The notes beneath the pieces were generated by a model. The model was not told where the DNA came from and made no database searches. It saw nothing but the letters and a program-made list of their open reading frames with translations. A DNA stretch of 64,000 nucleotides from Candidatus Poribacteria bacterium (GTDB taxonomy: Bacteria > Poribacteria > WGA-4E > JAJDTR01). The translations under genes and the position numbers were made by a program. Below, in pieces: positions 214 through 61,040 of the stretch (positions within the stretch are counted from its first letter, which is position 1; each line of letters begins with the position of its first letter). The DNA lies in NCBI GenBank assembly GCA_965222225.1, contig CBDCTK010000002.1, forward strand, positions 2,528,001-2,592,000, written 5' to 3'.

Positions 214-267
214 GATCTCTATCGCACTCACTATCCGTTCGCTTGATCGCTATTCACTCGCTTGATC
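214..267 (+). repeat. 35-bp micro-element plus the 3' half of a second copy
   Basis: GATCTCTATCGCACTCACTATCCGTTCGCTTGATC is identical to 5874-5908 and is followed by GCTATTCACTCGCTTGAT. Confidence 0.85.
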
Positions 268-384
268 TATTAGACGGTGGTATGCGCAAACTAACAGTTT
301 GCGCTACGAGGGCGTGTCAGATTTTATGGGAATTACAGGTGGTGGGTATGAGACTGCAAATACTATCAAGCACACAGAAGCTCA

Positions 385-1293
385 CTAACCATCTGTCGGT
401 ATCCCGGGCCAGTCTCGCCACATGTTCTCGCAAGGCGGCTCATCCAGCTTGTCCTTGAGGTCCTTTCTCACCAAATCCCCTAAAGCAGCTTTGCGAATCT
501 CGAGAGAATGGTTGGGCGGATTTCCCGCGTGTGCCAGTCTGTGATGAAAAAGAATAATGTCCCCTGCTTCCCCGGAGCATTCGGTGGCTGTTTGCTCCTT
601 GAGCATATCATGGTGTTTTTCGTAAGTGTCAGTCTTGTCTCGTCCAAACTGTGTTAGATGCTGATAATAGAAGACGCGGTGGCTCTTCGGAAAGATGGTA
701 AACCCGCCTCCGTTCGGGGGCACGTCATCTATAAATCCAACCACGCCCAAATGGAATTCATGACCGTCAGTATGGGGTTTGAGAGGTTCCACGGGGATAT
801 CGCGCTGGGGAAAGCGGCAATAGATGCCACGGGTACGAGATGGCACCGCAAGACTTCCTTTGCCTAGCAACTGTTCAGCCATCCCCCAGATGGATGCATC
901 CGTGAGAAGCATTCGCACCAAGAATTTTTCGGTGCCGAGTGTCCGATATCTCCAGCAAATGCCATCCACACCGGAATATTGATCGTTATGCGACGGTGGA
1001 TTGGGCAGCGCCCAACCGTCAAACAAATAGTCCGTCTCAGGCGATCTTGGGAGTTTTTTCCTGTCTTCAGGCGTTTGAATCGGGCCGCGCCATGTGTTCG
1101 GGTCGTTTCGGTCAATGCCGGGCGGCGGTTTGTCCCACAGTCTTTCGCGTGCCTGCGCCATCAGATTCTCGTCCATGACCTTGCGTTTGATAACATAACC
1201 TTCATCTCTAAAGAATCGGATTTCATCGGGCGTGAGTTTTACCATAGCGTCGTTGTATTCCATCCTTTCTCTCAAAATGTGTAAATAGGTCAT
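385..1293 (-). CDS. Phytanoyl-CoA dioxygenase (PhyH) family 2OG/Fe(II) oxygenase
   Basis: FFRDEGYVI, HTD, FTIFPKSH and GDIILFHHRLAH motifs. Start placed at MTYLH by alignment to the paralog (ORF track starts at 1380). Confidence 0.9.
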   Translation of the reverse strand: MTYLHILRERMEYNDAMVKLTPDEIRFFRDEGYVIKRKVMDENLMAQARERLWDKPPPGIDRNDPNTWRGPIQTPEDRKKLPRSPETDYLFDGWALPNPPSHNDQYSGVDGICWRYRTLGTEKFLVRMLLTDASIWGMAEQLLGKGSLAVPSRTRGIYCRFPQRDIPVEPLKPHTDGHEFHLGVVGFIDDVPPNGGGFTIFPKSHRVFYYQHLTQFGRDKTDTYEKHHDMLKEQTATECSGEAGDIILFHHRLAHAGNPPNHSLEIRKAALGDLVRKDLKDKLDEPPCENMWRDWPGIPTDG

Positions 1294-1392
1294 TTCGCCG
1301 GAAATTGGCCTTACACTTTTCTTGCGGCAAATACTCACGTTGTAGGTGATGCGCATGAGACCGCACATGCTATCAAGCACACGGCGTGCTCA

Positions 1393-2301
1393 TTATCCAT
1401 CTGTCGGTATCCCGGGCCAGTCTCGCCACATGTTCTCGCAAGGCGGCTCATCCAGCTTTTCCTTGAGTTCCTTTTTCACCAGATCCCCGATTATAGCTTT
1501 ACGAATTTCGCTAGACCAGTTAGGCGGGTTTCCCGCGTGTGCCAGTCTGTGATGAAAAAAAATGATGTCCCCTGCCTCCCCGCAGCATTCGGTGGCTGTT
1601 TGCTCCTTGAGCAAATCATAGTGTTTTTCGTAAGTATCAGCTTTGTCACGCCCATATTGCGTTAGATGATCATAATAGAAGACACGGTGGCTCTTGGGCC
1701 AGATGGTAAATCCACCACCGTTTGGGGGCACGTCATCTATAAAACCAAGTACACCTAAATGGAATTCATGACCATCAGTATGGGGTTTGAGAGGCTCCAC
1801 GGGAATGTCACGCTGGGGAATTCGACAATAGATACCACGGGTACGAGTTGGCACCGCAAGACATCCTTTGCCCAGCATCTGCTCAGCCATTCCCCAGATA
1901 GACGAATCCGTGAGAATCAACCGCACCAAGAAGTTTTCAGTGCCAAGTGTCCGATATTTCCAAGAAGTACCATCCACGGTGGAATATTCATCGTTATGTG
2001 ACGGTGGATTGGGCAGCGCCCAACCGTCAAATGAATAGTCCGTCTCAGGCGATCTTGGGAGTTTTTTCTTGTCTTTGGGCGCTTGAATCGGGCCGCGCCA
2101 CGTGTTCGGGTCGTTTCGGTCAATTCCGGGCGGCGGTTTATCCCACAGTCTTTCGCGTGCCTGCGCCATCAAATTCTCGTCCATGACCTTGTGTTTGATA
2201 ACATAGCCTTCATCTCTAAAGAATCGAATTTCATCGGGATTGAGTTTTACCATAACTTCGGTGTATTCCGTCCTTTCTTTCAAAGTGTGGAGACGATTCA
2301 A
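1393..2301 (-). CDS. PhyH family dioxygenase, tandem paralog of 385-1293
   Basis: Same motifs, collinear and highly similar sequence. Confidence 0.9.
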   Translation of the reverse strand: MNRLHTLKERTEYTEVMVKLNPDEIRFFRDEGYVIKHKVMDENLMAQARERLWDKPPPGIDRNDPNTWRGPIQAPKDKKKLPRSPETDYSFDGWALPNPPSHNDEYSTVDGTSWKYRTLGTENFLVRLILTDSSIWGMAEQMLGKGCLAVPTRTRGIYCRIPQRDIPVEPLKPHTDGHEFHLGVLGFIDDVPPNGGGFTIWPKSHRVFYYDHLTQYGRDKADTYEKHYDLLKEQTATECCGEAGDIIFFHHRLAHAGNPPNWSSEIRKAIIGDLVKKELKEKLDEPPCENMWRDWPGIPTDG

Positions 2302-2436
2302 TTCGCCGGAAAATTGGCTTATACTTTTCAGGTAACTGTTTAGTCCATCGGTCTGGATTTGTCAATCCAGACCGAGCGGGCAGGGAACGCGCCGAGTAGA
2401 GTAGCACAACGCTAATCCCGACGAATCATGAGCTTA

Positions 2437-2702
2437 TACCATTTCTCTAGAATGTAGGCGCATTGATTACATGGATCCAGTAAAGATACTTGCGTGGAGC
2501 GGAATAATAAGACTTGTCTCCGCGCAAAGTCGGCGGGGCAAAGGGATCTCTATCGATCAACTGAGCGGATAGCGAAGGCGATAGCAAATCCTGCTCATTA
2601 TTCATTCGCTTGATCGCTATTTGCTCTCTTGATCCCCGCCTACGGAGAAAGTGAACGATAAAATTCAGACGTCATATGCACCATTATTCTAGCGAAATGG
2701 TA
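2437..2702. mobile_element. MITE with TACCATTTC terminal inverted repeats, carrying a REP hairpin with nested micro-elements
   Basis: Left end TACCATTTCTCTAGAATGTAGGCGCAT; reverse complement of right end TACCATTTCGCTAGAATAATGGTGCAT. Confidence 0.75.
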
Positions 2703-2710
2703 TTACTAAT

Positions 2711-3556
2711 CTACTCCAAGAAAATCCCGTGTTCTTCGAGCCAGACTTTCAGCGGTACATCCTTATCTTTCCCTGAAAAATGACCGCCCGCTCTCGTCGC
2801 CCTGCCCAGCAGTTGTCGACGGATTGGGTCACATTTGTTGAAAATCTCTGGTGGAATTGTGATGTTATCCATAGAACGCAGCCACCGATAAGCGTATCCA
2901 ATGAAGAGCCCTTTCCGCGTAATCTCCGACTCGTTGCTGTTACGGCAATGCCAGAGCCGCCCATCAAAGAAGACCGCATCGCCGGGTTTGCAACAGACAG
3001 CCATCGCACCTTCGGGAAGGGAGCCGTCGCCGGGATTATCGATCGTCTTACAGAGGTGGCTACCGGGAATAATATAGAAATTGCCCCGCCCCGGTTCCGA
3101 GCAATCAGACAGCCAGTAGACAATTTTAAATGCCAATCGCGGCGAGGGATGGATTTGCATGTCTATGTTGACGCGCCCGCTGTCCTGATGCCAGCGAAGC
3201 AGCCCGGATTCGTCGAGCTCCGCCGGACTCCCTGGCGGCGTCACGATTAAGTGGGAGTGATACGAGTAGACGTTCCATCCGAGAATTCCCCAAACTTTCG
3301 GGAAGGTCCTGTACCAATCCAACAGGTTGACAAAGAGCTCGTCCCTGCCGAGGAAATCGCGATAGAAAAAATTCGTGTGCCGCGCCGTCGGGCCTTTTTC
3401 ATCCAGATGTTCTTGATGAATTTTATCGACGGGAGCTTCGAGTTCCGTCACAAGACTATGCGGAAGCGCGTTCTCAACGATGAGATAACCTTGTTCATTG
3501 AACTGTTGAAGCTGTTCGTCGGTTATCAAATGCTGAAGGTGGCGGTTATCAAGCAT
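2711..3556 (-). CDS. PhyH family dioxygenase
   Basis: QFNEQGYLIV, WHQD, IPGSH, PGDAVFFDGRLWH. Confidence 0.92.
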   Translation of the reverse strand: MLDNRHLQHLITDEQLQQFNEQGYLIVENALPHSLVTELEAPVDKIHQEHLDEKGPTARHTNFFYRDFLGRDELFVNLLDWYRTFPKVWGILGWNVYSYHSHLIVTPPGSPAELDESGLLRWHQDSGRVNIDMQIHPSPRLAFKIVYWLSDCSEPGRGNFYIIPGSHLCKTIDNPGDGSLPEGAMAVCCKPGDAVFFDGRLWHCRNSNESEITRKGLFIGYAYRWLRSMDNITIPPEIFNKCDPIRRQLLGRATRAGGHFSGKDKDVPLKVWLEEHGIFLE

Positions 3557-3712
3557 TCTGCTCCTCTTTAATCTGATAGCGATCTTTCAGTAAATCCGAA
3601 AATCTGTAGAATCGGACATTTCAACGATGGCCCGTTTCTGCTTCCCTTCGCTTGGCGAAAAATTGCAAAAAGGGTGAGTAAGTGAAAGGGGGCTCCGGTG
3701 AGTCGGTATTTA

Positions 3713-3786
3713 CTCCCTTTCTCTCGATATGGAATCGGGGGGATTAACCAACGGGCGAACGGCGATGGGCGGTGTGGTTTTTACTA
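3713..3786 (-). repeat. ~75-bp dispersed repeat (5'UTR/SD-like module), copy of 50325-50396
   Basis: TCCCTTTCTCTCGATATGGAAT...GGCGATGGGCGGTGTGGTTTTTACTA at both loci. Confidence 0.8.
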
Positions 3787-3893
3787 TTTAAAAGATAACC
3801 CGGAGTTCCACAGCCCCATTGAAAAGTGTCTATCAATTTAGGCGAGAAAGCTGGTTTACCAGCGTATTCACATTTGAGTGCGATATTGTCGAA

Positions 3894-5060
3894 TTAATCC
3901 CAAAACGGCACAAGCCACTCTTCCTCAATCTCTAATCCGAAGCCGGGACCATCATTCGGCGTAATGTAACTATCTTCAGGAATGGATTCACCTTCAATTG
4001 ATTTTGCTTCTTCCATAGGCACACCCGGGGCAGATGGGAGGAAGTATTCTACCCAGGGTGTATTGGGCATTGCCGCCGAGAGATGGAGTCCATATTGGTT
4101 TCCGCCGCCGCCGTGAAAGATGACGGTGAGTCCGGCAGCATCTGCCATGTGACAAATTTTGACGCATTCCGTGATGCCCCCGACCCAGAAAATATCCGGC
4201 TGAATGATATCCAGACACCCTTTCTCGATTATCTGTTTGAAAGGCCAACGGGTATATAGGTGCTCCCCTCCAGCGAGAGAAACCCAGTTCACAGCGTTGC
4301 GAACCCTGACGTGTCCATTGATATCTTCGGGGATTAGAAATTCCTCAATCCACTTCAGTCGATACGGTTTGAGTCGCTGTGCCAAGCGGATTGTGTAATC
4401 GACGTCAAAAGCCATGTAGCAATCCAACATAATCTCGACATCGTCGCCGACCAACTCCCGTGTTTTAGCAACAAGCTTTTCATTCTCCTTCAGCCCCCAA
4501 AGCCCATCCACAGGCCCATAAGGACACGCTAGCTTCACCGCTTTGAAACCGAGTTCGATCTGCCAATCTGTGTCGTTGCCTGTTGTGTATGCAAAGAGTT
4601 TGTCACGAACAGGGCCGCCCAATAGCTCATAGACTGGTTGGTTCTTGATTTTGCCGATGAGATCCCACAAGGCGAGGTCAACGCCGCTCATCGCACAACT
4701 GGTTAGGCCGAGTGAGCCGTAGGGCTTCGACAATCGGAACATCATATCCCAGATCCTTTCAACTGCAAAACAGTCTTCACTCACCAGCATCCGGGCAAAG
4801 TGGTCATCAATAATCGCAGCCACAGGTCTGCCGTACGAAGTTTGGCCAAGTCCCCAGGTGCCATCCTCGGCTGTGACTTTCACGAAGAGGTTTTCCCATT
4901 TCGGCATCCAACTGGAGCGGTAACGTTTGTACCTGGGATATTTGGACATCGGGTTGGCAACCTCAGAATATTCTGTCCAGGATGGACGCCGCTGGGGTGT
5001 GCGTTTCCCTGTTCGGGGAGGCATATTCAACTTAACAGCTTTTATCTCTTTAATTTTCAT
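3894..5060 (-). CDS. rhmD: L-rhamnonate dehydratase-like enzyme (mandelate racemase/enolase superfamily)
   Basis: VANPMSKYPRYK..RSSW N-terminus, KLACPYGP, MLDCYM, WIEE and GEH motifs. Confidence 0.75.
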   Translation of the reverse strand: MKIKEIKAVKLNMPPRTGKRTPQRRPSWTEYSEVANPMSKYPRYKRYRSSWMPKWENLFVKVTAEDGTWGLGQTSYGRPVAAIIDDHFARMLVSEDCFAVERIWDMMFRLSKPYGSLGLTSCAMSGVDLALWDLIGKIKNQPVYELLGGPVRDKLFAYTTGNDTDWQIELGFKAVKLACPYGPVDGLWGLKENEKLVAKTRELVGDDVEIMLDCYMAFDVDYTIRLAQRLKPYRLKWIEEFLIPEDINGHVRVRNAVNWVSLAGGEHLYTRWPFKQIIEKGCLDIIQPDIFWVGGITECVKICHMADAAGLTVIFHGGGGNQYGLHLSAAMPNTPWVEYFLPSAPGVPMEEAKSIEGESIPEDSYITPNDGPGFGLEIEEEWLVPFWD

Positions 5061-5099
5061 CGTAAGTGTTTAGTCGCCTGTAATTAGTGGTTATTAAAA

Positions 5100-5645
5100 C
5101 CCGCGCAGCACACGAACCGGCAGTGAATCGCCGAACTATAGCAAGACGTACAATGAATTGCACTACAACGAACCTCAAAGGAATGATGATTACCCTGCAT
5201 TCGCCCTAGGTTCTGTTGACATTTCATCGCAACCAGATAGTCGAAGGGTGTGAACCACGCATGGTCCTCCGTAGGGGTTGGGTTTCCCAACCCTTTGGTC
5301 ACACATCGGAGACCATTGCGGACTTCTGTAGGTCGATTTTCATGAAGATTAAGTATTTAAATCGGTAATTCCAGTTTTCCCTAAACTCGGTAGGTGCGGT
5401 TTCCTAACCGCACCGAGCATCGTTAGGACATTACCGAATTATTCTTTTAAGCTTCATCCAAATCGACATTAGAGTGTCGAGATCTGAATCTCGACCTACA
5501 ATCTGACCAGACTCATATGGTTTCGTTCTTCCAACCCACGTTGGGCAACGGGCGAGGGGGGATCACTATCGATCAACCGACTGGATAAGGAGGACGATAG
5601 AGAATCCTATTCGCTATTCGCTCACTTGATCCTCGGCCCTACGAT
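5100..5645. repeat. Cluster of GTAG-type REP hairpins with a nested small MITE (5342-5458) and micro-elements
   Basis: GTAGGGGTTGGGTTTCCCAACCC, GTAGGTGCGGTTTCCTAACCGCACC and GTCGAGATCTGAATCTCGACCTAC. The ATGAAG...CTTCAT inverted ends split GTAGGTCGATTT/AAATCGAC. Confidence 0.7.
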
Positions 5646-5873
5646 TGGACACACACTTCACATAAATGTCAACAGAACCTAGAATCAATAGACGAGGATT
5701 TACGCAAAAAGTGAACAAGGATGATTTTGGCAGTAATTTCATGTTGCGAGGCTCATGTAGGGAATAACGATTGTTATTCCCTACGGCCGCTTTGAGCAAT
5801 CTTCAATTATCAAACCGAAGATGGAATCCTCCAACTGCGTGCGTCCTATAGACTAAACAGTTACCATATTGAA

Positions 5874-6080
5874 GATCTCTATCGCACTCACTATCCGTTC
5901 GCTTGATCGTAGCAAGAGGGGAAATCGGGGATTTGATGATCTCCGATTGCACCCTACGAAAAATGGTGGGCAGTGCCCACCCTACAGGATTGTGCAAGAA
6001 AGAAACCGAGTTTTCAAGAAAGAAGAGATTTTTATCAGAACCTTCTATCGCGCTCGTTGTCTACTCGCTTGATCCCTACA
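5874..6080 (+). repeat. Two micro-element copies (5874-5908, 6038-6073) and a REP hairpin GGTGGGCAGTGCCCACCCTAC
   Basis: Direct match to the micro-element consensus; the REP also occurs at about 61074. Confidence 0.75.
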
Positions 6081-6221
6081 AATGTACAAAGCCGATCTGA
6101 TTATCTCCCTGAGTCGAATAACTGGCCTAGCTGCCACGAGTCTCGTAAGTCAATTGATGGGTGGGTCGCGATTGTATTTATCATACCATAGTCGTGCACA
6201 ACCTTCCAAGTCGTGTATATC

Positions 6222-6468
6222 AACCTGAGGTCAGCCCTTATTTTGCCCGAAATTCGTGGTGGCGTCAAGTGGAAGATGTGGTTTTGTAGGACTCCTGCAA
6301 TGTCGATTTTGGCTGTCAGCTACTCGATTGCCATATTCCCGTTGGATACGCTAAGGACAGGACTTTTCGGCGATAGAGTTATAGCTCTACGGGAAATGCC
6401 AGCGGGACGGAAAACACGAGATTGCTGTTGTTCCAAAAGTGAAAAACGGGTAAAATAGCTCACGGATA
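6222..6468 (-). repeat. ~245-bp dispersed repeat, probably a mobile-element end carrying a promoter; copy at 50398-50644
   Basis: Collinear high-identity match. TTGACG-N17-CAAAAT on the minus strand at 6240-6268. Confidence 0.85.
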
Positions 6469-6690
6469 TGGGGATGGTTCATATTTCGCCTGAATTTAGT
6501 ACAATTTTCAAAACCGCTAAAAATCACTAAAAATCAGACGGTTGTCTCAAATGGGACAGGTGAGTGGTAGAGTGGTGAGTGGTTGTGCCAGTTCCCACCA
6601 CTCACCATTCACCACTCACAGCAACGGCATTGAGGTGTTGCGAATTTCAGAATTTCAATCGACCGCGCATGTCCGCTTCGTTTTTCTATC

Positions 6691-7539
6691 ATGAACCGAT
6701 TATCACCCGAAGAAATCAGCTTCTTTAAACGCGAGGGATGCCTCATCAAAAAAGGCGTGCTCGATCCCGACCTGATGGCGCGCGCCCGCAAGTGCAAATG
6801 GGCTGGAGCGCCGGATCGGATGAAGCCTGACGACCCGACTACCTGGATCGGCCCCTGGCGCCCAGATGAGGAAACACCCGAAGCGGAGGACAACTGCAGG
6901 GTCGGGCACTACTGGCAATACCGCGAACCGGCGCACGAGGAGTGGCTAGTACGGATGACGGTGGCGAACCCCATAATCGTTGGTTGGGCTGAACAGCTTC
7001 TCGGGGAAGGCACGTTCGACGTGCGGGACGGCGTTCGCGGCATCTACTGCCTGTTGCCGAAGGGTGGCACTCCGGACAACCCTGGTGTGAGCCAGAAGCT
7101 AGTTTGCCACTGCGACGTCAATCCCGACAAGTTACACAAGACACCCTTCCAAAGGCTTCTGAAGGCCGGTGTCGGCGCCGTCGGACTGATTGCGCCCATT
7201 CCGCCCAATGGGGGAGCATTTACGGTGTGGCCGGGAACACATAAGATTATTTACGACCTGATGATCAGAACCGAAGGCCTCGCCCGCAACGAGGCCTACA
7301 AGCAGCGGATCATCGACTTCAACAGCGACCGCCATGTCGATGGTTGGGGTGACGCGGGCGACGTTCTCCTGTGGCACCGCATGCTGGCTCACACCGCCGG
7401 TTCGAACCGCTCCGAAAAATTGCAATTGAGGGAAGCGGTGCTCTTCGATTACCCGCAGCCGGAGGCCGAGAAGCCGAAGGCATCCTACGAAGACATGTGG
7501 GAGGACTGGTCGGATGAGGTGCGCGCGACAGCCGGGTGA
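6691..7539 (+). CDS. PhyH family dioxygenase
   Basis: FFKREGCLI, HCD, FTVWPGTH, GDVLLWHRMLAH. Confidence 0.88.
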   Translation: MNRLSPEEISFFKREGCLIKKGVLDPDLMARARKCKWAGAPDRMKPDDPTTWIGPWRPDEETPEAEDNCRVGHYWQYREPAHEEWLVRMTVANPIIVGWAEQLLGEGTFDVRDGVRGIYCLLPKGGTPDNPGVSQKLVCHCDVNPDKLHKTPFQRLLKAGVGAVGLIAPIPPNGGAFTVWPGTHKIIYDLMIRTEGLARNEAYKQRIIDFNSDRHVDGWGDAGDVLLWHRMLAHTAGSNRSEKLQLREAVLFDYPQPEAEKPKASYEDMWEDWSDEVRATAG

Positions 7540-30723: not shown

Positions 30724-30896
30724 TTCAGAAAATACTCACGGTATTCCCAGTAGCAGAGACTTCAACTCGTCTCCACGCTTGACGCCCTTCTTGGAGCGAA
30801 TAAATTCGCCACTACAAGAGGAAGCGCGCGGCGCGGTCGAAAACGAACCATTCTTCACGTTTTCCTAGCATGAACCCACATCGAAAGGAGAACCTC

Positions 30897-32495
30897 ATGA
30901 AAACGGTACAGTTTATCCTCATCAGTCTGGTGCTGGGTATTGGACTGGGGTCCATAAGTCACTCCGCCGACGAGGAAGTCATGCTTATCGCCGACGAAGG
31001 CGAAGGGCAAAACCAGATGTGCGCTGATGTTTTCAGGAACTCTGTAATCGTCGGCGTACATTCGAATGTCGGCTTGGCCAAAATCTACGTGCGCGATGGC
31101 AAAAAGTGGAAAGAGCGGGCGGAACTGACTGCCAAAATTGGCGCAGCTGCCGTAGCTGATAATTTTGGCTTTTCGGTCGCGATAAACGGTCCCCGCGTGC
31201 GGGGCGCCGCGAACATTGCTATTGTCGGGGCACCGCAGCACGATGGTGCTGGTGATGACTCCGGCGCAGCTTATATCTTCTCGCGCAGCGGAGACTCCTG
31301 GAAGCGGGCGAAACTTGTCGCTGATGACGCAGCAGCAGTAGACACTTTCGGATATGCCGTGTCCATTGACCGAAACACTGCCATCGTTGGGTCACCAAAG
31401 CACGATGCTGCCGGCAGCAACTCGGGTGCAGCCTATATTTTCGCCGGTGATGATTCTTGGAACCAGCAGGCGAAGCTCGTCCCCAAAGATTTAGAGGGAA
31501 GAGACACCTTCGGAACGTCTGTCTTCGTTCGTGAGCGCACCGCTGTCGTCGGGGCACCGGCGCACACACATAGTGGCATAAAATCCGCCGGCGCTGCCTA
31601 CGTCTTCGTGCGCGAGGGGGAGACGTGGAGAGAACAAGCCAAACTCACACCCGACGACGCTGCACAGAGAGACCGTTTCGGACATTCTGTCGCTATGAGT
31701 ATGAGTAGCGACACCATCATCGTTGGGGCGCCATTCCATGATACTGAGCGCGGAGTGGATGCTGGTGCCGCCTATATCTTCGCGCTCGTTGGGGACACCT
31801 GGAAGCAGCAGGCGAAGCTGATGATCAAAAGCGCACGGGAAGGCGATCAGCTCGGATCTGGTGTCGCCACCACCGGGAAAATTGCCATTCTTGGGGCTAA
31901 GGGCCGCGATGAAGGCGACGTGGCTTCAGGTGCCGCCTATGCCTTTGTGCGTGTTGACGGGGTCTGGGAGGAGAGAGAACAGGTTACGCCCCTCGTTCCG
32001 ATAAAGCAGGGGTTTTTTGGCTTTTGGGTGGCTATGAGCGAGAATACTGTCGTTATCTCCGCTCATATCTGGCCCAGGCCCTTAGCGCACGAGCGGGCTG
32101 ACGGCGCAGCGGCGTTTGTCTATAATAGTATAGAAGATTTCGGCACGCCCCCTTTTGCCGTCGAACCGTTTGGATTGAGACTAACGACGTTAGGGCAGGT
32201 CAAGCGCACGGCGCTTTATCAAAACTTCCCGAATCCATTTAACCCAGAGACCTGGATGCCGTATCGGTTAGTGGTTGAAGCTCCGGTGACCTTTCGCATT
32301 TACAACGTCCAGGGGCAACTGACCCGCGAGTTGAATCTCGGGACCCAAAAATCGGGCGGTTATCTAACACGACAAACCGCCGCCTATTGGGACGGCAGAG
32401 ACGGAGTCGGAGAGACGGTTTCCAGCGGTGTCTATTTCTACACTCTCCAGGCTGGCCCATTCCAGGCAACCCGACGCATGCTCATTTTGAAATAG
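30897..32495 (+). CDS. Secreted FG-GAP repeat protein with FlgD/T9SS-like C-terminal domain
   Basis: Repeats FG.SV...IVGAP...GAAYIF..W.QQAKL; C-terminal domain QNFPNPFNPETW...WDGRD..GE.VSSGVYFY. Confidence 0.92.
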   Translation: MKTVQFILISLVLGIGLGSISHSADEEVMLIADEGEGQNQMCADVFRNSVIVGVHSNVGLAKIYVRDGKKWKERAELTAKIGAAAVADNFGFSVAINGPRVRGAANIAIVGAPQHDGAGDDSGAAYIFSRSGDSWKRAKLVADDAAAVDTFGYAVSIDRNTAIVGSPKHDAAGSNSGAAYIFAGDDSWNQQAKLVPKDLEGRDTFGTSVFVRERTAVVGAPAHTHSGIKSAGAAYVFVREGETWREQAKLTPDDAAQRDRFGHSVAMSMSSDTIIVGAPFHDTERGVDAGAAYIFALVGDTWKQQAKLMIKSAREGDQLGSGVATTGKIAILGAKGRDEGDVASGAAYAFVRVDGVWEEREQVTPLVPIKQGFFGFWVAMSENTVVISAHIWPRPLAHERADGAAAFVYNSIEDFGTPPFAVEPFGLRLTTLGQVKRTALYQNFPNPFNPETWMPYRLVVEAPVTFRIYNVQGQLTRELNLGTQKSGGYLTRQTAAYWDGRDGVGETVSSGVYFYTLQAGPFQATRRMLILK

Positions 32496-32498: not shown

Positions 32499-32908
32499 GT
32501 GCGTTTCGGAGTATGTCAATGCAATGTAGGTTCAATTCCTACTATGCGAGCCACCTCGTATAAGTCTAATCCTAACTGCAATATTGGAAACGATGTTGTG
32601 GGAAGCAAGGAGACAAGGCGCATAGCCCGATGTAGGACGGTAGACATTAAGTTGCTACGTCCGACTACGATGATAAGGTTAGGGGAAACCCAAACAGATT
32701 GTCTGAAGCCTCGAAGGAAACCGTCTGAGACCTCAAGTTACTCCCAAGCGTTAAGCTAGGAAGCCGTCTATGAGGGAAACCACACCACATGGAGATTGTT
32801 GGGATACTATGCTATTATCTCAACAGGTGGTAGTTCAAGGCACGGGGTAAAGATCTGAACCTAAGTTATCGGTGAAGTGGATTGACAGAGAACCGAAAAG
32901 TCCCTAAG
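32499..32908 (+). ncRNA. 5' portion (domain I) of a group II intron, CL/IIB-like, truncated
   Basis: Starts GTGCGTTTCGG 3 nt after a stop codon; GTAGGTTCAATTCCTAC hairpin and GAACCGAAAAGTCC; no D5 or D6 seen. Confidence 0.65.
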
Positions 32909-35961: not shown

Positions 35962-36705
35962 TCATGCGAAAGCTGGGCTTGCTCGGTTAGCATCAGTGAA
36001 TGTTTGCGCGATTGCCGCTATTTCTGGGCTTCCCGATACCTGGCACTGATGAACGAATGAGAATTTCATCTGCCCCGCTGAGTGATAGTTTTGTCCTCGT
36101 CGGGGCTTTTTTCTGCCTGCCAACAGACGACTCCCCCAGAAGTATTGGCGTTCTGTCTTCTTCGGCGGTGTATATCTGATACAGAAGTAACGGTAGCGTG
36201 CGGCGCATTCATCGAGTGTGTTCCCTATCGAAAAGAACGCCGGGTGCCACTGTGTCAGTCCATCGTCGGTCAATCGGTCGTAGGTTCCGTAATTTGAGAA
36301 CGTGTAGAAAAATCCTTCTCGTATGCCTGCCGCTTTGGGGTTGGCGTGGATATAGCGCAAGGTATTGAGCGCACGTTGCTTGTCGTCTTTGTGGAATCCT
36401 GTGCTGTGATACCGTTGTTCCCAGAAATGCCCCTTTCGGTTGAGCATGCGGTTGAAGCACATCGCCGTGTACCAGTTGAGCCAGTGCATGATTTGGGGCA
36501 AATCCAAAGGGGCTTTGGGTTCAATCAGGTAGTGGATGTGGTTACTCATGATGCAAAAAAAGCCGTACTTCTCCTGAGCCCTTTTTATCGCGTACAGCAG
36601 CACCTCTCGGCACTCTTGGGACGTCAGGTGAAATTCACGGTTGTTGCAGCGAACGGTCACATGGTAGCAGTAATCAGGTTGCAAGTCTCGCTTTGGACGT
36701 GGCAT
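35962..36705 (-). CDS. REP-associated tyrosine transposase (RAYT, HUH Y1 family)
   Basis: YHVTVRCNNR, MSNHIH (HUH), GHFWEQRY, YIHANP. Confidence 0.9.
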   Translation of the reverse strand: MPRPKRDLQPDYCYHVTVRCNNREFHLTSQECREVLLYAIKRAQEKYGFFCIMSNHIHYLIEPKAPLDLPQIMHWLNWYTAMCFNRMLNRKGHFWEQRYHSTGFHKDDKQRALNTLRYIHANPKAAGIREGFFYTFSNYGTYDRLTDDGLTQWHPAFFSIGNTLDECAARYRYFCIRYTPPKKTERQYFWGSRLLAGRKKPRRGQNYHSAGQMKFSFVHQCQVSGSPEIAAIAQTFTDANRASPAFA

Positions 36706-52462: not shown

Positions 52463-53096
52463 GTGCGCCACGAAGAATCTATCGACTGACTGCTGAAAGT
52501 GCAGTTGGAAAAGTGCAGACCAAACACATTCCATACCGAGTCTTGGGCAGGCGTCGGTAACGGCAGCTGTTAAGCGTAGACAAGGAGGTTGCAGGCTGTA
52601 AGCCTTCTAGCTGAATTGATTGAGCCCCATTAATCCGTTTTCTGAGGTGGCTGAGAGTCTGATTTACCTCGAAAGCAACATCACATATACCGTTATATGG
52701 CAAGGGATATGTGGCACCTTCGGGGTCTAAGAGCACGGCATGTAACTAGAGCCGCTAGGTGAACGTGGGAGATCCTTTAAGCCCTTCGTTTTATCGAAGT
52801 ACCAGCCGACAAGTGTAAAAGCGAGGAAGCTGAGATGGCTTAAAGGAAGTCAGATGGGTTATAGTACCGTAGAAGCGAGGTAATGCTCGCTGAGGGAAGG
52901 ACCCTGGGTAAAACGACCTTTGGAGGGGAAACGTTGTGAGATCATCAGAATCTCAATCAACAACGAAAACGCAACTGAAAAGGATAGCTTGGTTATCCTA
53001 AACCGAGCGAACCGCTCTATCTTGAGCATTGCCTAAATCGGGCACGATGGGATCTAACTTGCGGGAAGCCTAGGTAACAGGGTTTCTCTACCACCT
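52463..53096 (+). ncRNA. Complete ORF-less group II intron (~634 nt)
   Basis: Starts GTGCG; DI, D3, short D4, D5 (2-nt deletion relative to the 48.6-kb copy) and D6 ending CTACCACCT; homologous to 48300-48696. Confidence 0.88.
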
Positions 53097-53305: not shown

Positions 53306-54943
53306 CTATTTCACAATGAGCATTCTGCGCGTGGCTTGGGACGAGCCAGCGTGGAGGGTGTAGAAATAGACACCGCTGGAAACCGTCTCTCCGACTCCGT
53401 CTTTACCGTCCCAATAGGCGGCAGTTTCTCGCGTCAGATAACGCCCTGCTTTTTGGACCCCGAGATCCAACTCACGGGTCAGTTGCCCTCGGAGGTTGTA
53501 GATGCGAAAGATCACAGGCACATCGACCACTAATCGATACGGTAACCAGGTCTCTGGGTTAAACGGGTTGGGGAACTTTTGGAGCAGCGCCGTGCGTTTA
53601 ATCTGCCCGAGCGTTGTCACCCTCAATCCAAACGGCTCGACGGGGAATGGCAGCGCGTCGAAATCGTCTGCAATATTATAGACATACGCTGCCGCACCAA
53701 ATCCGAGATTGAGGGGAGGGACCGAAGGGAGGGCATGAGCCGAGACAACGACATGGTCGCCGGCGATAGCCACCCAAGCGCCGAAGGTGATGTTTTGCCC
53801 CTCTTGGTCGGGCGTAACCTTTTTCTTCTCCTGCCAGACCCCGTCCACACTCACAAAAGAATAGACGGCGGCCGAGGCCGGTAGGCCACGTGCTTCGCGT
53901 CTTGGCGCGCCAACGATGGCGGTTTTCCCGTTGGTGGCGACACTCGAGCCGAACCGATCGCTTGGGTTGGTGTCTTCGGCAATCAGCTTGGCTTGTTGAT
54001 TCCACCGCTCGCCATCACGGGTGAAGATATAGGCTGCACCGGCATCTCTTCCGGCATTACTATCATACATTGGCGCTCCAACGATGACCGTATCCCCGCT
54101 CATGGCGATTGTACGTCCGAAATGGTCGCCCTTTCGGGCGTCATCGGCTGTGAGTTTGGCTTGTTGGACCCACGTTTCTCCCTGGCGTTCAAAGACATAG
54201 ACGGCGCCGGCGAGTCTGAGTCCATTATGCGTGTGCTTAGGCGCCTCGATGATGGCGACGTTCTCACGGACGATGGCGGCCTCTCCGAAATTGTCTCCTT
54301 TCCCTAAATCTTGGGGAACGAGCTTGGCCTGCTGTTCCCACCGCTTTCCATCGTGGAAGAAGATATAGGCTGAACCCGAGTCCTGGCCGGCATCATCATC
54401 CTTTGGCACACCAACGATGGCCGTGCTACGGTCAATGGACACAGCATGTCCGAAACGATCGTCATCCTCCGGGTCTGCAGCGACAAGTGTCGCCTGCTGT
54501 TTCCAAGCAGCCCCGCGAGGGGCGAAGATATATGCCGCCCCCTTCATCCCTTTCTTCCAATCCGCAGCTTGGTCACCGGCCCAGTCGGCGCCATGAAGGT
54601 CCGACGGTGCCCCGACGATGGCGATGTTCGCACTGGCCTGAGCATGGCGAGCACTGAGAGAGACTGCCCATCCGAACTCACCAAGCTGCGGGTTGGCTGG
54701 ATCTCGGTCTTCCAAACGAAGCTCCGCCAACTCTTTCCAGTTTTTGCCCCTGCCGATATAGATTTTCGCGACGCCCACCTTTTCGGCTCCCGCGACTATG
54801 GAATCCCCGATAATATCAGCGGACAAATGAAGACCCCGTGTTTCAGGGTCAGCGATAAGCTTGACTTCCTCTTCGGCGAGACTGATGGCCCCCGGTCCAA
54901 TACCGAGGACGAGACTGATAAGGAGAAACTGTGCCGTTTTCAT
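53306..54943 (-). CDS. Secreted FG-GAP repeat protein with FlgD/T9SS-like C-terminal domain, paralog of 30897-32495
   Basis: Same repeats and C-terminal domain. Confidence 0.92.
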   Translation of the reverse strand: MKTAQFLLISLVLGIGPGAISLAEEEVKLIADPETRGLHLSADIIGDSIVAGAEKVGVAKIYIGRGKNWKELAELRLEDRDPANPQLGEFGWAVSLSARHAQASANIAIVGAPSDLHGADWAGDQAADWKKGMKGAAYIFAPRGAAWKQQATLVAADPEDDDRFGHAVSIDRSTAIVGVPKDDDAGQDSGSAYIFFHDGKRWEQQAKLVPQDLGKGDNFGEAAIVRENVAIIEAPKHTHNGLRLAGAVYVFERQGETWVQQAKLTADDARKGDHFGRTIAMSGDTVIVGAPMYDSNAGRDAGAAYIFTRDGERWNQQAKLIAEDTNPSDRFGSSVATNGKTAIVGAPRREARGLPASAAVYSFVSVDGVWQEKKKVTPDQEGQNITFGAWVAIAGDHVVVSAHALPSVPPLNLGFGAAAYVYNIADDFDALPFPVEPFGLRVTTLGQIKRTALLQKFPNPFNPETWLPYRLVVDVPVIFRIYNLRGQLTRELDLGVQKAGRYLTRETAAYWDGKDGVGETVSSGVYFYTLHAGSSQATRRMLIVK

Positions 54944-56037: not shown

Positions 56038-56075
56038 ATCAAGCGAGCGAATAGTGAGTAGGATTCTCTATCGCC
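56038..56075 (-). repeat. Partial nested micro-element inside a GTAGGTTGGGTTGA REP
   Basis: Reverse complement GGCGATAGAGAATCCTACTCACTATTCGCTCGCTTGAT matches 5593-5630. Confidence 0.75.
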
Positions 56076-56314: not shown

Positions 56315-56342
56315 TTGACAAGCGCGTATTTTTTGTAATAAT
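56315..56342 (+). promoter_or_regulatory. Sigma70-like promoter for the tRNA pair
   Basis: TTGACA...TGTAATAAT. Confidence 0.6.
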
Positions 56343-56360
56343 AGAGTTTGCATAGGATGT

Positions 56361-56431
56361 TGCCCGGTCGTCTAATGGCAGAACGCATGGCTCTGGACCA
56401 TGTTGCGAAGGTTCGGGGCCTTCCCGAGCAG
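56361..56431 (+). tRNA. tRNA-Gln(CTG), degenerate
   Basis: Anticodon arm CATGG-CTCTGGA-CCATG; atypical T-loop TTCGGGG; acceptor C-A mismatch; CCG end. Confidence 0.75.
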
Positions 56432-56438
56432 CCGATGA

Positions 56439-56508
56439 GGCGCTATCGCCTAGGGTTAGGACGGGTGGTTTTCAGCCATCAAACCGGGGTTCGATTCCCC
56501 TGGCGCTA
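56439..56508 (+). tRNA. tRNA-Glu(TTC), degenerate
   Basis: Anticodon arm GGTGG-TTTTCAG-CCATC and T-loop TTCGATT; D arm altered and T stem one base short. Confidence 0.75.
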
Positions 56509-56539
56509 TCTTTGACTTACGTGATGTTCCTAGGATGTA

Positions 56540-56932: not shown

Positions 56933-57222
56933 CGCCTAGGAACCTAAGAAATCGTTCGCATTGCTGCTACTGATTATCCAATCCCCCATCCCCTCCACGT
57001 CTTTCCCCCGCCTAGTAGATGTCATAAACTTCGCACAATTCTTTTCAACATGCCCGCCCTAAACACCGCCTAGAATGCCAAGAGATGCAGTTCGGACAAT
57101 TGGCTGTGCCAACGTTGATTTCTGCTTTCCGCTTGCCAACCCTAGGGGATTCTGTTATAGTTCATCTCATCAACTGACGTGCAGACGCAGAACATCTCGT
57201 TAAAACGGAGGAGACAACAAGC

Positions 57223-57756: not shown

Positions 57757-57991
57757 TACCATTTCTATATATTGGCAGTGCATTAATAGCGTCAATCAAG
57801 TCTTTCCAAAGCGAGGCAAGGGGATCTCTATGGGAACTCTATCGCGGTCACTGTTCGTTCCCTTGATCCCTCGCTACTCACTCGGTTGATTCCCGCCTAC
57901 GAGGTTTAGCGTGAAGGGCAACTGTTGGTATGGGTTGTGTCATAAGTATAATGGAAAACACTATATGCACTGTTATTCAAGCGAAATGGTA
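57757..57991. mobile_element. TACCATTTC MITE with a REP and doubly nested micro-element (57821-57890)
   Basis: IRs TACCATTTC...CAGTGCAT at both ends; same family as 2437-2702. Confidence 0.75.
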
Positions 57992-58075
57992 TAATCAGGA
58001 ATCCAAAAAAAGAAACCGAGTTTGCGGAAAAAACTCGGTTTCGCGTCACTATTGCTCTACCGGCGCCAAGAGGAA

Positions 58076-59872
58076 TTACTCGGCAATAACAGCTATCTTT
58101 ACGCCCGCGTTCTCTGAATTGCCATTCGAATTCGTTGCGTGCACCTGACAGACATACATGCCACCCGCGACTCGATCCCCATCCGTTTTGTCCCCGTCCC
58201 AATAAAACTCGTCGTTCACCCCCAATCGCCCACCGTTGTTTCCTGCGCGGAATTTACGTTCGAAGATTTTCTCTCCGACCAAGGTGTAAATCGTAACATC
58301 TACGTCGGCGTCTTGATTCAGCACGTACGACAGCTTCATGCCCTGGTCCGGAGTACCGAAGCGCGCCGGATTCGGGTATGCCATGATATTCGCAATCACC
58401 AATTGACTATCATGCACTATTGTATCTCCGGCTTCTGTAATGGGTTGCGCCAGTTCCGCCAGTGTGGCAACCGCCAATTGGACAGCCCGCTTCCCCAAAG
58501 GCAAGGTAATTTGATCGAGGGTGTCTATTTCGCTATGGATATAGTCGGTTGATTCCGGTGCATTAAAGGTAGATTCCTCCGAGACCATAACCGCAGGGAC
58601 TCCGATTTTCCAGAATGGGGAATGATCGCTAAAGATAAAGCTGGGGTCGTTCTTTTTGCGCAACTCGACATCGATATTGTACCGTTGCGCCGCCGTACCA
58701 AAAGCGTTCACGAGCCACTGAGAGCTTTCATCGCCCAGCACGTGGATATCCAGAACCCCGTCTTCATCATGCCCCAAGAGATCGAAATTCAGCACGCCGG
58801 CAATCTGATCGCCGCGTTCCGTCACGAGTTTGCTGTAGTGCTCGCTCCCAAAAAGAAACAGTTCCTCGCCGGTGAAGGCGATGAACTTGATAGTAAAGTC
58901 GAAATCCTGCCGACTGATGATGCGCGCGGTTTCAAGGATTTCAGCGATTCCCGATGCGTTGTCCGAAGCCCCGGGCGCGGGCAAAATGTGCCAATTCGCG
59001 TCCCAGCCGGAAGTCTTGAAGGAAATACTGTCATAGTGACCCGTCATCAGAAAGATACGATCTCGGTTGGGCCCCTTCCCCGGCAGGGTCGCAACAACGT
59101 TCCGCATAACATATTCACCCAACAGTGGCCCGCCCAAGCCTCCTCGGCGACGATGCGGAAACGAATCAAATTCAACCTCTAGCCCGTAACTACGGAACTG
59201 GTCGGCGATATAATCCGCCGCATTGTCGCAGGCGTGATCGGGGGTCGGTCTGCCATCGTGTTGGACGGCGTCGCGCACGCGGAGCGCGTACCGGCTTCTG
59301 AAGAAATGCCCAGGACGTTCCAGGTCCTGGTTCTCAACAAGCGCCTTAATCAAGTCGAACCAGCGATTGGCATCAACCTCTTGAAGCAGGGATTGAATAA
59401 TAGCTTGGTTTTGAGGCGCTGCGGAGACGCTCGGCGCAAATAACGACTGGTCAAATGCGGCAATCTTCACTTCAGTTGGCAGCCTAGCTCGATGGTGCCC
59501 GGGAATCTTGAGCAATTTTCCCTCAATTTCGCCCGGCAATTTAACCAGAAATATCCCATCAAAGGCGTCCAGTAATTCTCCGTACTTCTCGGCTTCCGAC
59601 TGCGTTCCCAGGCGAAGCAGGTAGTAGTTGAACTCGGGCAGCACGACATCCAGAACCTCGGCATGAGAAAGGGCTGGCAGGGCGCTTCGGCTCGCTTGAA
59701 CGATGGAGAAGTCGCGGGTGCGATAACGCAACTTCAACCCGTATCTCTCGGTCAAGACACGGAGTTGTTGATTGGAGTTTTCAGGGATTTTGAGGAGCAA
59801 CTCCTCTTGATCCGAAACTAGGGGTGTGCTGGAAAGGAGGAAAAACAAAATTGAAATTGCTAGTTTGCGCAT
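58076..59872 (-). CDS. Secreted M28 peptidase with FlgD/T9SS-like C-terminal domain
   Basis: GHYDS, GASDNASG, FTGEE, SDH, YPNP...WDG. Confidence 0.92.
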   Translation of the reverse strand: MRKLAISILFFLLSSTPLVSDQEELLLKIPENSNQQLRVLTERYGLKLRYRTRDFSIVQASRSALPALSHAEVLDVVLPEFNYYLLRLGTQSEAEKYGELLDAFDGIFLVKLPGEIEGKLLKIPGHHRARLPTEVKIAAFDQSLFAPSVSAAPQNQAIIQSLLQEVDANRWFDLIKALVENQDLERPGHFFRSRYALRVRDAVQHDGRPTPDHACDNAADYIADQFRSYGLEVEFDSFPHRRRGGLGGPLLGEYVMRNVVATLPGKGPNRDRIFLMTGHYDSISFKTSGWDANWHILPAPGASDNASGIAEILETARIISRQDFDFTIKFIAFTGEELFLFGSEHYSKLVTERGDQIAGVLNFDLLGHDEDGVLDIHVLGDESSQWLVNAFGTAAQRYNIDVELRKKNDPSFIFSDHSPFWKIGVPAVMVSEESTFNAPESTDYIHSEIDTLDQITLPLGKRAVQLAVATLAELAQPITEAGDTIVHDSQLVIANIMAYPNPARFGTPDQGMKLSYVLNQDADVDVTIYTLVGEKIFERKFRAGNNGGRLGVNDEFYWDGDKTDGDRVAGGMYVCQVHATNSNGNSENAGVKIAVIAE

Positions 59873-60009
59873 CTAAAAAGCGGTTCCTAAGAGTAACTTA
59901 TGGATTCGGAGATTTGCAGTGAGAACGGCAAGTATTCTACAAAACAGCGACGCCCGGCGTCAATGTCAATTTCGTTCGCCGCAGGTTAAAGATGACGACG
60001 GCTTCTCGT

Positions 60010-60918
60010 CTACGATGTCTCCTCCAAGACGCTCCGTAAGACTCCGGCTTGCGCTTCCAATCGGGATACCGCATCATCGTATCCCACTCCCGCCGCCAGC
60101 ATGACTATCGCGGTTTTGACGCTGCCGCACGCACGCGTCAGTGCTTCTTGAGCCGTATCGAAGTCCGCACCCGTCACTTCCACAATGATGCGTATTCCCC
60201 GGTCGGTCAGCTTGGCGTTGGAGGATTGCAGGTCGACCATCAGGTTGTTGTATACCTTGCCGATTTTAATCATTGAGATAGTCGAAAGCATGTTTAGCAC
60301 GAGCTTTGTAGCCGTTCCGGCTTTCAGACGGGTAGACCCCGTAATAATCTCGGGTCCCACGATTGGAGCGATGCAAACATCTACAAACTCTCTCAGGACA
60401 TCGGCGGCGGGACTACAGCAGAGGAAGATTGTCTTTGCACCAAGTCTGTGCGCCTCTTTCAGTGCGCCGATGACGTAAGGGGTGTACCCGCTGCTGGCAA
60501 TGCCAACTAGGACATCTTGCTCTGCTACGCCTCGCTCGCGGATTGCTTGTGCGCCGATCTCAGGCTTATCCTCCGCAGCTTCCACAGAGCGTCGCAAGGC
60601 ACGGTCACCCCCGGCGATAATTCCCTGCACCATGTCGGGATGGGTGCTGAACGTCGGGGGACATTCGGAGGCATCCAGAACGCCCAGTCTGCCGCTCGTC
60701 CCGGCGCCGATGTAAAAGAGTCGCCCATCCCGTCGGAAGGTGTCTGTAATGAGTTCAACACCTTGCGTAATTGACCCGGACACAGCCTCCACGGAAGCCA
60801 GTAGCTTTTGATTCTCTTCGTGAAAAATCTCGACAATCTCTTCTGTTGATTTGAGATCGATGTCCAGCGAGTTGGGATTTCGGTGCTCGGTGATGAGTTC
60901 GGAGAGGTTCATTCGCAT
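60010..60918 (-). CDS. murQ: N-acetylmuramic acid 6-phosphate etherase
   Basis: TEHRNP, GAGTSGRLGVLDASECPPTF, GSTRLKAGTATK. Confidence 0.96.
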   Translation of the reverse strand: MRMNLSELITEHRNPNSLDIDLKSTEEIVEIFHEENQKLLASVEAVSGSITQGVELITDTFRRDGRLFYIGAGTSGRLGVLDASECPPTFSTHPDMVQGIIAGGDRALRRSVEAAEDKPEIGAQAIRERGVAEQDVLVGIASSGYTPYVIGALKEAHRLGAKTIFLCCSPAADVLREFVDVCIAPIVGPEIITGSTRLKAGTATKLVLNMLSTISMIKIGKVYNNLMVDLQSSNAKLTDRGIRIIVEVTGADFDTAQEALTRACGSVKTAIVMLAAGVGYDDAVSRLEAQAGVLRSVLEETS

Positions 60919-61004
60919 AGGAAGACAGTGGCTAGTGGTCAGTGATTTGCGGGTCAGTCATTATTGTACCATTTCGCTATATTGGCAAAGTCGCGATTCG
61001 GAGA

Positions 61005-61040
61005 GGGATCTCTATCGCACTCACTATTCATTCGCTTGAT
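61005..61040 (+). repeat. Micro-element inserted in REP TCGCGATTCGGAGA|TCGCTCCTAC
   Basis: GGGATCTCTATCGCACTCACTATTCATTCGCTTGAT; a TACCATTTC end lies at 60967. Confidence 0.85.

Follow-up and report, generated by a model that had tools for sequence, protein, structure and literature searches.

The 64,000-nucleotide stretch analyzed here (the window) comes from a Candidatus Poribacteria bacterium that lives as a sponge symbiont (contig CBDCTK010000002.1, positions 2,528,001 to 2,592,000) and carries dispersed copies of a repeat of about 35 bases, hereafter the micro-element, which an earlier note on this DNA had placed at eight positions and described as a mobile element. The window corresponds to C2:2528001-2592000 of its own genome, G000, which comprises 5.70 Mb in 2 contigs. 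With up to three mismatches allowed, the consensus given in the earlier note is found at 212, 5872, and 61005, and 100 shuffles indicate that none is expected. A profile built on 121 genome copies, with which G000 was scanned at E < 0.01, gives nine matches in the window: 210-251, 2553-2590 (minus strand), 2594-2621, 5566-5612 (minus strand), 5871-5913, 6044-6082, 56038-56059 (minus strand), 57826-57875, and 61000-61048. Because these nine matches account for all eight named positions, each of the latter holds a copy, whole or partial. The copies and the hairpins that belong with them, including those of the repetitive extragenic palindromic (REP) type, are as follows.

212-248, plus strand: full copy in a 37-base frame, the inserted 34-base unit being 214-247 (profile E 1e-13).
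249-267, plus strand: extra 3' half, belonging to a second copy in a stack behind the first one, as read from the sequence and the stack pattern.
284-307, minus strand: empty GTAG-tagged hairpin, with filled counterparts in sister genomes.
2543-2555, plus strand: 5' part of the outer copy of composite 1, within a GCGGGGCAA...CCCCGC REP loop.
2556-2591, minus strand: inverted inner copy past CTATCG of the outer copy, composite 1 (profile match 2553-2590, minus strand).
2592-2615, plus strand: 3' part of the outer copy of composite 1, then another 3' half (profile match).
5559-5571, plus strand: 5' part of the outer copy of composite 2, within a GGGCGAGG...CCTCGGCCC hairpin.
5572-5607, minus strand: inverted inner copy of composite 2, entering the outer copy at the position used in composite 1, with different stem bases (profile match 5566-5612, minus strand).
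5608-5631, plus strand: 3' part of the outer copy of composite 2.
5872-5908, plus strand: full copy in a non-repeat flank, identical over 35 bases to the 214 copy (E 9e-14).
6038-6074, plus strand: degenerate copy, followed by CCTAC (E 5e-5).
56038-56075, no single strand: fragment pair, an inverted 3' part (56038-56060) and a forward 5' part (56061-56075).
57821-57831, plus strand: 5' part of an outer copy, within a GCGAGGCAAG...CCCGCC REP loop.
57832-57867, plus strand: inner copy nested in the outer one, without counterpart in the orthologous single copy of the sister genome G001.
57868-57891, plus strand: 3' part of the outer copy, with the stem bases of the G001 orthologue but for one.
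61005-61041, plus strand: full copy in a REP loop, between CGGAGA and GCTCCTAC (E 1.6e-14).

The copies at 214 and 5874 are indeed the same over 35 bases in unrelated flanks, as had been noticed earlier. The places at 2543 and 5559 are composites, in which a forward copy is interrupted past CTATCG by an inverted copy, while at 57821 a forward copy is interrupted past CTAT by another forward copy; the copy at 6038 is degenerate, and that at 56038 is a fragment.

The scan of the genome and its relatives with profile and covariance models, for which the earlier note had called, shows a repeat far beyond chance. G000 contains 1098 profile matches (491 plus, 607 minus), of which 828 span the core and 721 are full-length and ungapped; the 35-base core itself has 5 exact matches, 121 with at most 4 mismatches, and 681 with at most 8. 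Two sets define the counts given below: the 721 full-length ungapped profile copies were used for stem statistics, and 628 matches to a regular expression serve as strict copies. The reversed strict pattern, used as a control, gave 0 matches in every genome searched. Over the 721 copies the frame is GGGATYTCTATCGC-NN-TC-NY-TATYC-RN-TC-NN-TTGATC, and information content rises abruptly at position -1 and drops past position 35. The unit thus measures 34-37 bases and holds no open reading frame (ORF), in line with the size and lack of coding capacity claimed for it, and it makes up about 0.7% of these symbiont genomes. Its first two frame bases are GG in 400/628 strict copies, AG in 77/628, and AA in 50/628. 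About 22 positions are 95-99% fixed, and eight are nearly free, each showing three or four bases, yet covary. The variation is therefore not spread mostly over C/T and A/G exchanges, as the earlier note had it, but is concentrated in eight positions that covary as four pairs, giving 190 stem combinations and 627 distinct 37-mers among the 721 copies. Such stem diversity beside otherwise fixed positions fits selection for copying competence.

The four pairs define a strand-specific fold. The highest mutual information is found for positions (17,25) with 1.13 bits, (14,28) with 0.94, (13,29) with 0.65, and (18,24) with 0.45, and these pairs lie antiparallel around position 21. Between them stand the invariant T15 C16 and T26 C27, which on the complementary strand give two tandem G.A / A.G mismatches. 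Cells that are not Watson-Crick are strongly one-sided, with 344 being G.T on the complementary strand and 39 being G.T on the strand as written, and the complementary strand is therefore the folding strand, as DNA or RNA. It reads GATCAA-NN-GA-NN-GRATA-NN-GA-NN-GCGATAG... In an independent covariation set of 140 copies out of related genomes, 96.1% of 560 cells pair, compared with 64.7 +/- 1.4% after shuffling (0/500 shuffles reach the observed value). In the same set, changes on both sides are present in 4/4 pairs (241 cells vs. 40 expected), sliding the partners lowers pairing to 23-59%, and GU/UG cells number 67 compared with 11 for CA/AC. The minimum-energy fold under RNA parameters is exactly the covarying structure, and when it is given G/C flanks like those of a REP loop, an outer helix of 7 bp forms between the GATC ends (-16.6 kcal/mol, z -2.4). 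These data show that the folded strand forms a short hairpin in which four pairs, Watson-Crick or wobble, surround two tandem G.A mismatches.

Within the Poribacteria, the micro-element is abundant in a narrow part of the phylum. A scan of named genomes returned at least 101 stretches, and the 80 listed among them are without exception metagenome-assembled genomes of Candidatus Poribacteria. A phylum survey of 176 Poribacteria genomes places high copy number in two genera: that of the window, in which 10/10 genomes have 270-749 strict matches each, and a second genus from another family, in which 4/4 genomes have 110-125. Five further genomes of the phylum have 1-13 matches, and those of G066 and G146, the two highest, are clustered on a few contigs, which may be transferred islands or mis-binned contigs. 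The covariance model found at least 148 copies in the second genus and no copy in the complete genomes of three element-free genera, and a search of viral contigs and plasmids gave no match to the micro-element. Variants are species-specific and one subfamily is genus-specific, the second genus having its own subfamily with a different 5' segment. It follows from this difference that the shared 30-base core consists of CTATCGC, the hairpin, and TTGATC. Copies are found both in complete long-read chromosomes and in short-read assemblies of several record series, in at least 14 genomes. No Rfam family matched over the copies at the gathering score, and none matched window 5400-6200 at E up to 1.

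Most copies are intergenic, with 528/628 strict copies lying outside ORFs of at least 100 amino acids, a cut-off that together with crude tiling assigns 81% of G000 to such ORFs. With respect to their immediate surroundings, 180 of the 628 touch another copy, 135 are of REP type (CTAC within 14 bases), 20 lie in an IS200-like or MITE (miniature inverted-repeat transposable element) hairpin, 14 lie in other hairpins, and 279 are elsewhere. The description of an element residing inside REP hairpins and inside itself is thus correct for about half of the copies and fails for the others. A perfect flanking stem of at least 5 bp within 6 bases is present in 63/628 copies, compared with 4.8% of re-paired flanks, and the notion that a copy always sits inside a hairpin was accordingly rejected. 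Empty forms of the named REP hairpins are present in G000 (for example, GGAGATCGCTCCTAC occurs 95 times), which bears out one part of the claim that removing the micro-element restores them; the restoration is only approximate, because 0-4 loop bases are replaced. Orientation inside REPs is fixed: CTAC follows 150 copies, and the opposite arrangement is seen in 9. The hairpins that host the micro-element have CCTAC at their end (GTAGG when read on the opposite strand). Some host repeat families carry mostly one micro-element variant, and composites must therefore spread as units too.

Evidence that the micro-element has moved comes from filled and empty sites. For comparison between species, 100 kb of syntenic sequence was taken from each of four sister species, whose genes are 85-93% identical to those of G000. 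G001 and G009 differ at one syntenic intergenic site by exactly 34 bases, which are inserted between ...TTCCG and CCCCTC... in G001 and missing in G009; the flanks are about 95% identical, and there is no duplication, no loss of bases, and no homology arm. This clean orthologous insertion agrees with the absence of a clear target duplication reported earlier. At 57821-57891 the window is orthologous to a single copy in G001, and the second copy nested within it in G000 replaces two bases. The GTAG-tagged hairpin at 284-307 is empty in G000; alignment shows a filled counterpart in G005, G002, and G009, and a profile match alone suggests one in G001 too, with orthology at this hairpin being less certain owing to tandem gene paralogues. 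Filled and empty sites at syntenic places in different species thus uphold the proposed mobility. The genes concerned form a tandem paralogous pair at 385-1380 and 1393-2301 (both minus strand), and in the sister genomes read, a hairpin near each copy of this gene pair can house the micro-element.

Within G000 itself, 196/628 copies have an "empty" paralogue as judged by 11-mer flanks, and 78 have an empty partner by the stricter measure that the flanks match over at least 35 bases with 80-100% identity; junctions were inspected in 45 of these 78 pairs. In one host family different micro-element variants occupy one site, which must therefore have been hit more than once. The intergenic region of window 5075-6096 is not conserved in G002, G009, G001, and G008. 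Two scans of BLAST alignments for indels returned 0 events in one case and 9 in the other, none of the latter involving the micro-element. Sequencing runs gave 20 matches to parts of window 1-7000, and the four compared are all contigs that end at the repeats. One contig from an RNA run lacks 2541-2634; it is covered as deeply as a repeat family and most likely represents a paralogous empty REP. A further observation concerns window 13587-47339, about 34 kb, which shares 97.6-99.5% identity with G005 and about 98% with G009, where the background is 85-92%, and which from these identities looks like a recently exchanged island. It contains 0 copies of the micro-element, compared with 6.5 expected from the genome mean.

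The junctions follow a simple rule. Position 35 is C in 582/628 strict copies, and the replaced host string ends in C in 33/35 inspected pairs with replacement; in the remaining two, C comes next in the host. The written strand thus has its T-end joined to a host C or, equivalently, the 5' ATCAA of the folded strand is joined behind a host G. At the opposite end the junction is ragged: 0-4 host bases are lost, occasionally more, the written strand has one or two purines, and the retained host flank at this left junction ends in purines. Counted against the 37-base unit, 3 host bases are replaced in 23 pairs, 1 in 17, 4 in 13, 2 in 12, and 5 in 1, and 12 negative values correspond to tandem stacks. 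Among the 313 copies that lie neither in REPs nor in nests, the four-base host sequence preceding ATCAA on the folded strand is W (0.75), G (0.59), S (0.89), and G (0.94). The preference for particular sites that the earlier note had suspected is thereby made specific, with one end placed at a host C and a W-G-S-G flank that is seen even outside repeats.

Copies that have entered other copies obey the same rule. In nested copies the host copy resumes just past C12, C16, C23, or Y18, and inverted self-insertion past G11 was found 51 times, compared with 1 and 0 at the neighboring positions. Perfect head-to-tail tandems number 0, trimmed tandems in which the left copy lacks its last bases number 18, and stacks of 5' parts number 129. 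Reinsertion at a surviving host G/C step, with one-sided trimming, explains tandems, stacks, and nests alike: since no event removes the host G, a site stays open to further hits and stacks of trimmed copies result, and the G residues within the micro-element give rise to nested copies. The only arrays seen are head-to-tail 38-base units without spacers, as at C2:1578373-1578563 of G000, where a subfamily with the 5' segment CTACAAGA is repeated and the paired stem bases differ from unit to unit; the 100-kb bin at 1.5-1.6 Mb of the same contig has 49 strict copies.

The orientation of copies follows local GC skew rather than genes. Relative to flanking genes, 177 copies in same-direction contexts point one way and 169 the other, and the convergent and divergent contexts number 85 and 97. 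Relative to local GC skew in 100-kb windows, regions of positive skew have 180 plus and 104 minus copies, whereas regions of negative skew have 98 plus and 245 minus (odds ratio 4.3, p 2e-18). The bias persists when the set is thinned to one copy per 10 kb (odds ratio 3.9, p 3e-8); copies outside REPs have it as well (odds ratio 3.6), as do empty REP families.

On balance, we consider that this repeat is probably a non-autonomous mobile micro-element of 34-37 bases that acts as a single strand. Its non-autonomous character, already proposed in the earlier note, is consistent with its size, the lack of an ORF, and the failure to find a longer element bounded by its halves: 48 intervals of 0.4-4 kb between two halves were collected, and the ten of these that were compared, most of about 1.7 kb, shared no alignment longer than 300 bases and thus revealed no master. 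In new copies the 5' end of the folded strand (ATCAA) is joined exactly behind a host G, preferably in a W-G-S-G context, and the other end is joined raggedly with the loss of 0-4 host bases and without target duplication. The event would take place on single-stranded DNA at the replication fork. An enzyme would be supplied in trans, and its identity is the weakest step of the proposal. The first candidate would be an HUH Y1 transposase of the RAYT / IS200 kind encoded by G000, whose own REP substrates share the strand bias and host the micro-element in a fixed orientation. Even if the micro-element does act as a single strand, a RAYT-type enzyme as its mover is a tentative and rather doubtful assignment.

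The Y1 complement of G000 consists of five Y1_Tnp matches, including two RAYT-like genes flanked by REP types that host the micro-element. These two genes (C2:3080258-3080728 and 3088937-3089269) have inverted hairpin repeats on their flanks, of the ACCTGTCGCCCC..GGGGC type and the GTAGGAGCGATC..GTCGCGA type, with one flank each holding the micro-element; the second gene has an in-frame TAG. At C2:3560325-3560519 there is a Y1_Tnp remnant, comprising the C-terminal half only, that has apparently been cut off by stacked micro-element copies. In the window, a 247-amino-acid ORF at 35962-36705 (minus strand) matches Y1_Tnp (PF01797, 60 bits); it lies in the island and is 99% identical in G005.

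Several observations weigh against the single-strand reading or the enzyme attached to it. From the five Y1 loci of G000, the 157-amino-acid RAYT and the window Y1 protein were profiled across genomes, and the co-occurrence with RAYT genes that the earlier note had suggested as a check did not appear: Y1_Tnp is present in 34/41 relatives, element-free genera included, the 157-amino-acid RAYT in 105/176 genomes of the phylum, and the window Y1 protein in 7/176, with 3/10 in the element-rich genus and 0/4 in the second. The transposases of IS200/IS605 elements carry out precise two-ended chemistry that does not leave a ragged second junction, and the ragged junction seen here is more in keeping with priming or template switching than with HUH chemistry at both ends. 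The micro-element also has one hairpin and not two as in IS200/IS605, and if the leading strand is taken as the G-rich one, as is usual, its folded strand falls on the nascent-lagging side, whereas IS200/IS605 elements use the lagging-strand template. Cumulative skew has several peaks, and orientation was read against local skew rather than against a mapped origin and terminus. The lone hairpin is weak (-0.9 kcal/mol as DNA, -4.4 as RNA) and no better than shuffles, which leaves covariation as the basis for the structure. Finally, filled and empty pairs are mostly paralogues and not orthologues, clean orthologous pairs are few and come from 4 x 100 kb of sister genomes, and the evidence for mobility includes no within-population insertion polymorphism.

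The same junctions could in principle be produced by reverse transcription, with a host 3' G (for example, that of a nascent lagging strand at the fork) priming cDNA on an element RNA, the cDNA running to the RNA 5' end, the second junction being made by microhomology, and a reverse transcriptase such as that of a group II intron acting in trans. Target-primed reverse transcription leaves one exact and one ragged junction, and the micro-element shows this pair together with extra purines, small target losses, and no target duplication. Endonuclease-less group II introns use primers at the fork, and their orientation tracks GC skew as that of the micro-element does; the folded strand would, moreover, equal the cDNA strand. 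G000 has group II introns, two of them in the window, where intron domains are found at 52496-52735 (plus strand, RF02005, 129 bits) and 32543-32639 (plus strand, RF02012, 37 bits). The long ORFs beside these domains, at 53306-54943 (minus strand) and 30870-32495 (plus strand), probably encode the intron proteins. A transcribed source is not evident, as orientation is independent of neighboring genes. Furthermore, no conserved master locus was found, Rfam gave no match with E relaxed to 1, the existence of 190 stem variants points to numerous active sources, and the RNA-run contigs gave no usable signal. We regard reverse transcription as unlikely, yet as the main alternative. A process without any dedicated enzyme, in which polymerase template switching or gene conversion at stalled forks is guided by the hairpin and by microhomology (G at one end, GG/CC at the other), appears less probable still. 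It would suit the microhomology-like left junction with its retained flank ending in purines, the many copies in repeat families whose arms are able to supply homology, and the host families that have mostly one variant and whose composites spread as units. It is difficult to reconcile with the 279/628 copies in non-repeat contexts, the exact and recurrent insertion points (51 vs. 1 and 0), the orthologous 34-base insertion without homology arms, the different variants at the same host site, and the very strong conservation of 22 non-stem positions; in addition, only two genera have the micro-element, although REPs and RAYTs are phylum-wide.

Two further explanations dispense with mobility in the present or altogether. 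If the repeat were a host-function motif, such as a protein binding site or a structured RNA, selected at each locus and no longer mobile, its extremely conserved core, the retention of compensatory pairing, and its mostly intergenic location (528/628 outside ORFs) would all be accounted for. The sites, however, are not conserved between species of the genus, orientation is random relative to genes, and nested, trimmed, and stacked copies are hard to explain on such terms, as are the exchanged 34-kb island with 0 copies instead of 6.5 and the absence of the repeat from most of the phylum; this explanation is very improbable. An assembly, adapter, or library artifact, for which no supporting point was found, has a practically negligible chance of being correct. 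The repeat is present in at least 14 genomes from independent long-read and short-read assemblies, it has species-specific variants and a genus-specific subfamily, and the reversed control pattern has 0 matches everywhere. Its presence in independent assemblies refutes the artifact.

The closest known parallel to a single-stranded micro-element of this kind, and the one drawn in the earlier note, is that of the small dispersed repeats (SDRs) of cyanobacteria. The parallel holds as a concept and no further, because the host is a poribacterium and not a cyanobacterium. Like SDR4-6 of the Nostocaceae, the micro-element is very small, has no ORF, reaches high copy number, and is inserted precisely at preferred short sites. 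In Elhai et al. 2008 (Genome Res 18:1484), SDR units reportedly measure 21-27 bases and fall into eight sequence families, and they are said to nest within one another. To our knowledge, no enzyme has been named that moves them. Filled and empty orthologous sites and nesting, the marks of SDR-type mobility, are seen with the micro-element too, whereas the heterocystous cyanobacterial host and the HIP1 target are not. SDR5 inserts between bases 3 and 4 of HIP1 (PMC4390886), and a 2026 paper gives its length as 21 bases and its function as still unknown (PMC13756078). A 2018 paper reports no SDR-like repeat outside the Nostocaceae among HIP1-rich cyanobacteria. Compared by description and not by sequence, the micro-element is longer (34-37 bases vs. 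21 for SDR5) and its target is a G/C step with a W-G-S-G flank instead of HIP1. Beyond what characterizes SDRs, it has a hairpin with tandem G.A mismatches established by covariation, a strand-specific wobble bias, and an orientation that follows GC skew.

Other classes of small repeat share some of these features. Like REPs and REPINs, the micro-element is short, abundant, and intergenic, causes no target duplication, and likely has a single-stranded hairpin as its active form; its skew bias is that of the GTAG-tagged REPs of G000 itself. Its consensus has neither GTAG nor CGTC, two conserved mismatches break up its weak stem, and it enters its own copies at fixed positions and is a guest in REP loops, all in contrast to REPs. 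RAYT-type REPs flank their transposase genes, but at the 5 Y1 loci copies occur only as guests of REPs or as interruptions of a Y1 remnant. IS200/IS605 elements have an orientation linked to the direction of replication, a fixed flank motif of 4-5 bases, and no target duplication. The micro-element likewise inserts without target duplication, it has a preferred short flank on the folding strand, and it carries within itself a possible new target that would favor stacking. For the micro-element the motif is W-G-S-G at 59-94% per position and the second junction is ragged; there is a single hairpin in place of two, and no relative with these ends was found that could be autonomous. In addition, the folded strand is on the side opposite to that which the skew rule usually predicts. 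MITEs such as Correia and Nezha are also non-autonomous, abundant, and intergenic, and the short terminal inverted symmetry GGGATC ... GATCCC is reminiscent of them. They measure 100 or more bases compared with about 35, while the micro-element is strand-specific, has no target-site duplication, and has an end symmetry of 4-7 bases. A CRISPR repeat does not fit either, as the arrays have no spacers.

By these comparisons, together with the fold and the junctions, we class the repeat as an SDR-like micro-element of another phylum that exceeds the SDRs in length and has a demonstrated strand-specific structure and a defined insertion rule. No report was among the papers listed by a literature search on such repeats in Poribacteria. 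At about 35 bases, this mobile DNA is near the lower size limit for carrying recognition signals, and it offers several handles on the question of how such repeats move, namely an active strand, a covarying hairpin, one exact and one ragged junction, a flank motif, and a replication-linked orientation. With 14 genomes that have the micro-element and more than 150 that do not, a gene-content screen for the mover is feasible. The micro-element also has practical consequences, as short-read assemblies are broken at every copy and it marks the time that DNA has resided in a genome, the recently exchanged island having none. More speculatively, the 30-base core might be the complete cis substrate of an undescribed strand-transfer system that joins one end to an exposed G at the fork and leaves the other to repair, and that would unite the micro-element and SDRs as cross-phylum "micro-transposons"; we regard this broader proposal as conjectural, with the odds clearly against it. 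If true, such a system would act on elements much smaller than any whose mechanism is known.

Some minor features of the region deserve mention. Two adjacent tRNA genes (56361-56508, plus strand) lie just downstream of the 56038 fragment. In the sister genomes, a stretch of G001 (L005, about 2730-2795) has an insertion of about 60 bases relative to G009 (L007) that repeats the flanking TATCGC and is an unrelated small indel with a direct repeat. Window 5342-5463 holds a repeat of about 120 bases with a GGTGCGGTT...AACCGCACC hairpin, which belongs to a separate MITE-like family; every genome of the genus has numerous copies of it, 90-99% identical, and they occur both with and without the micro-element.

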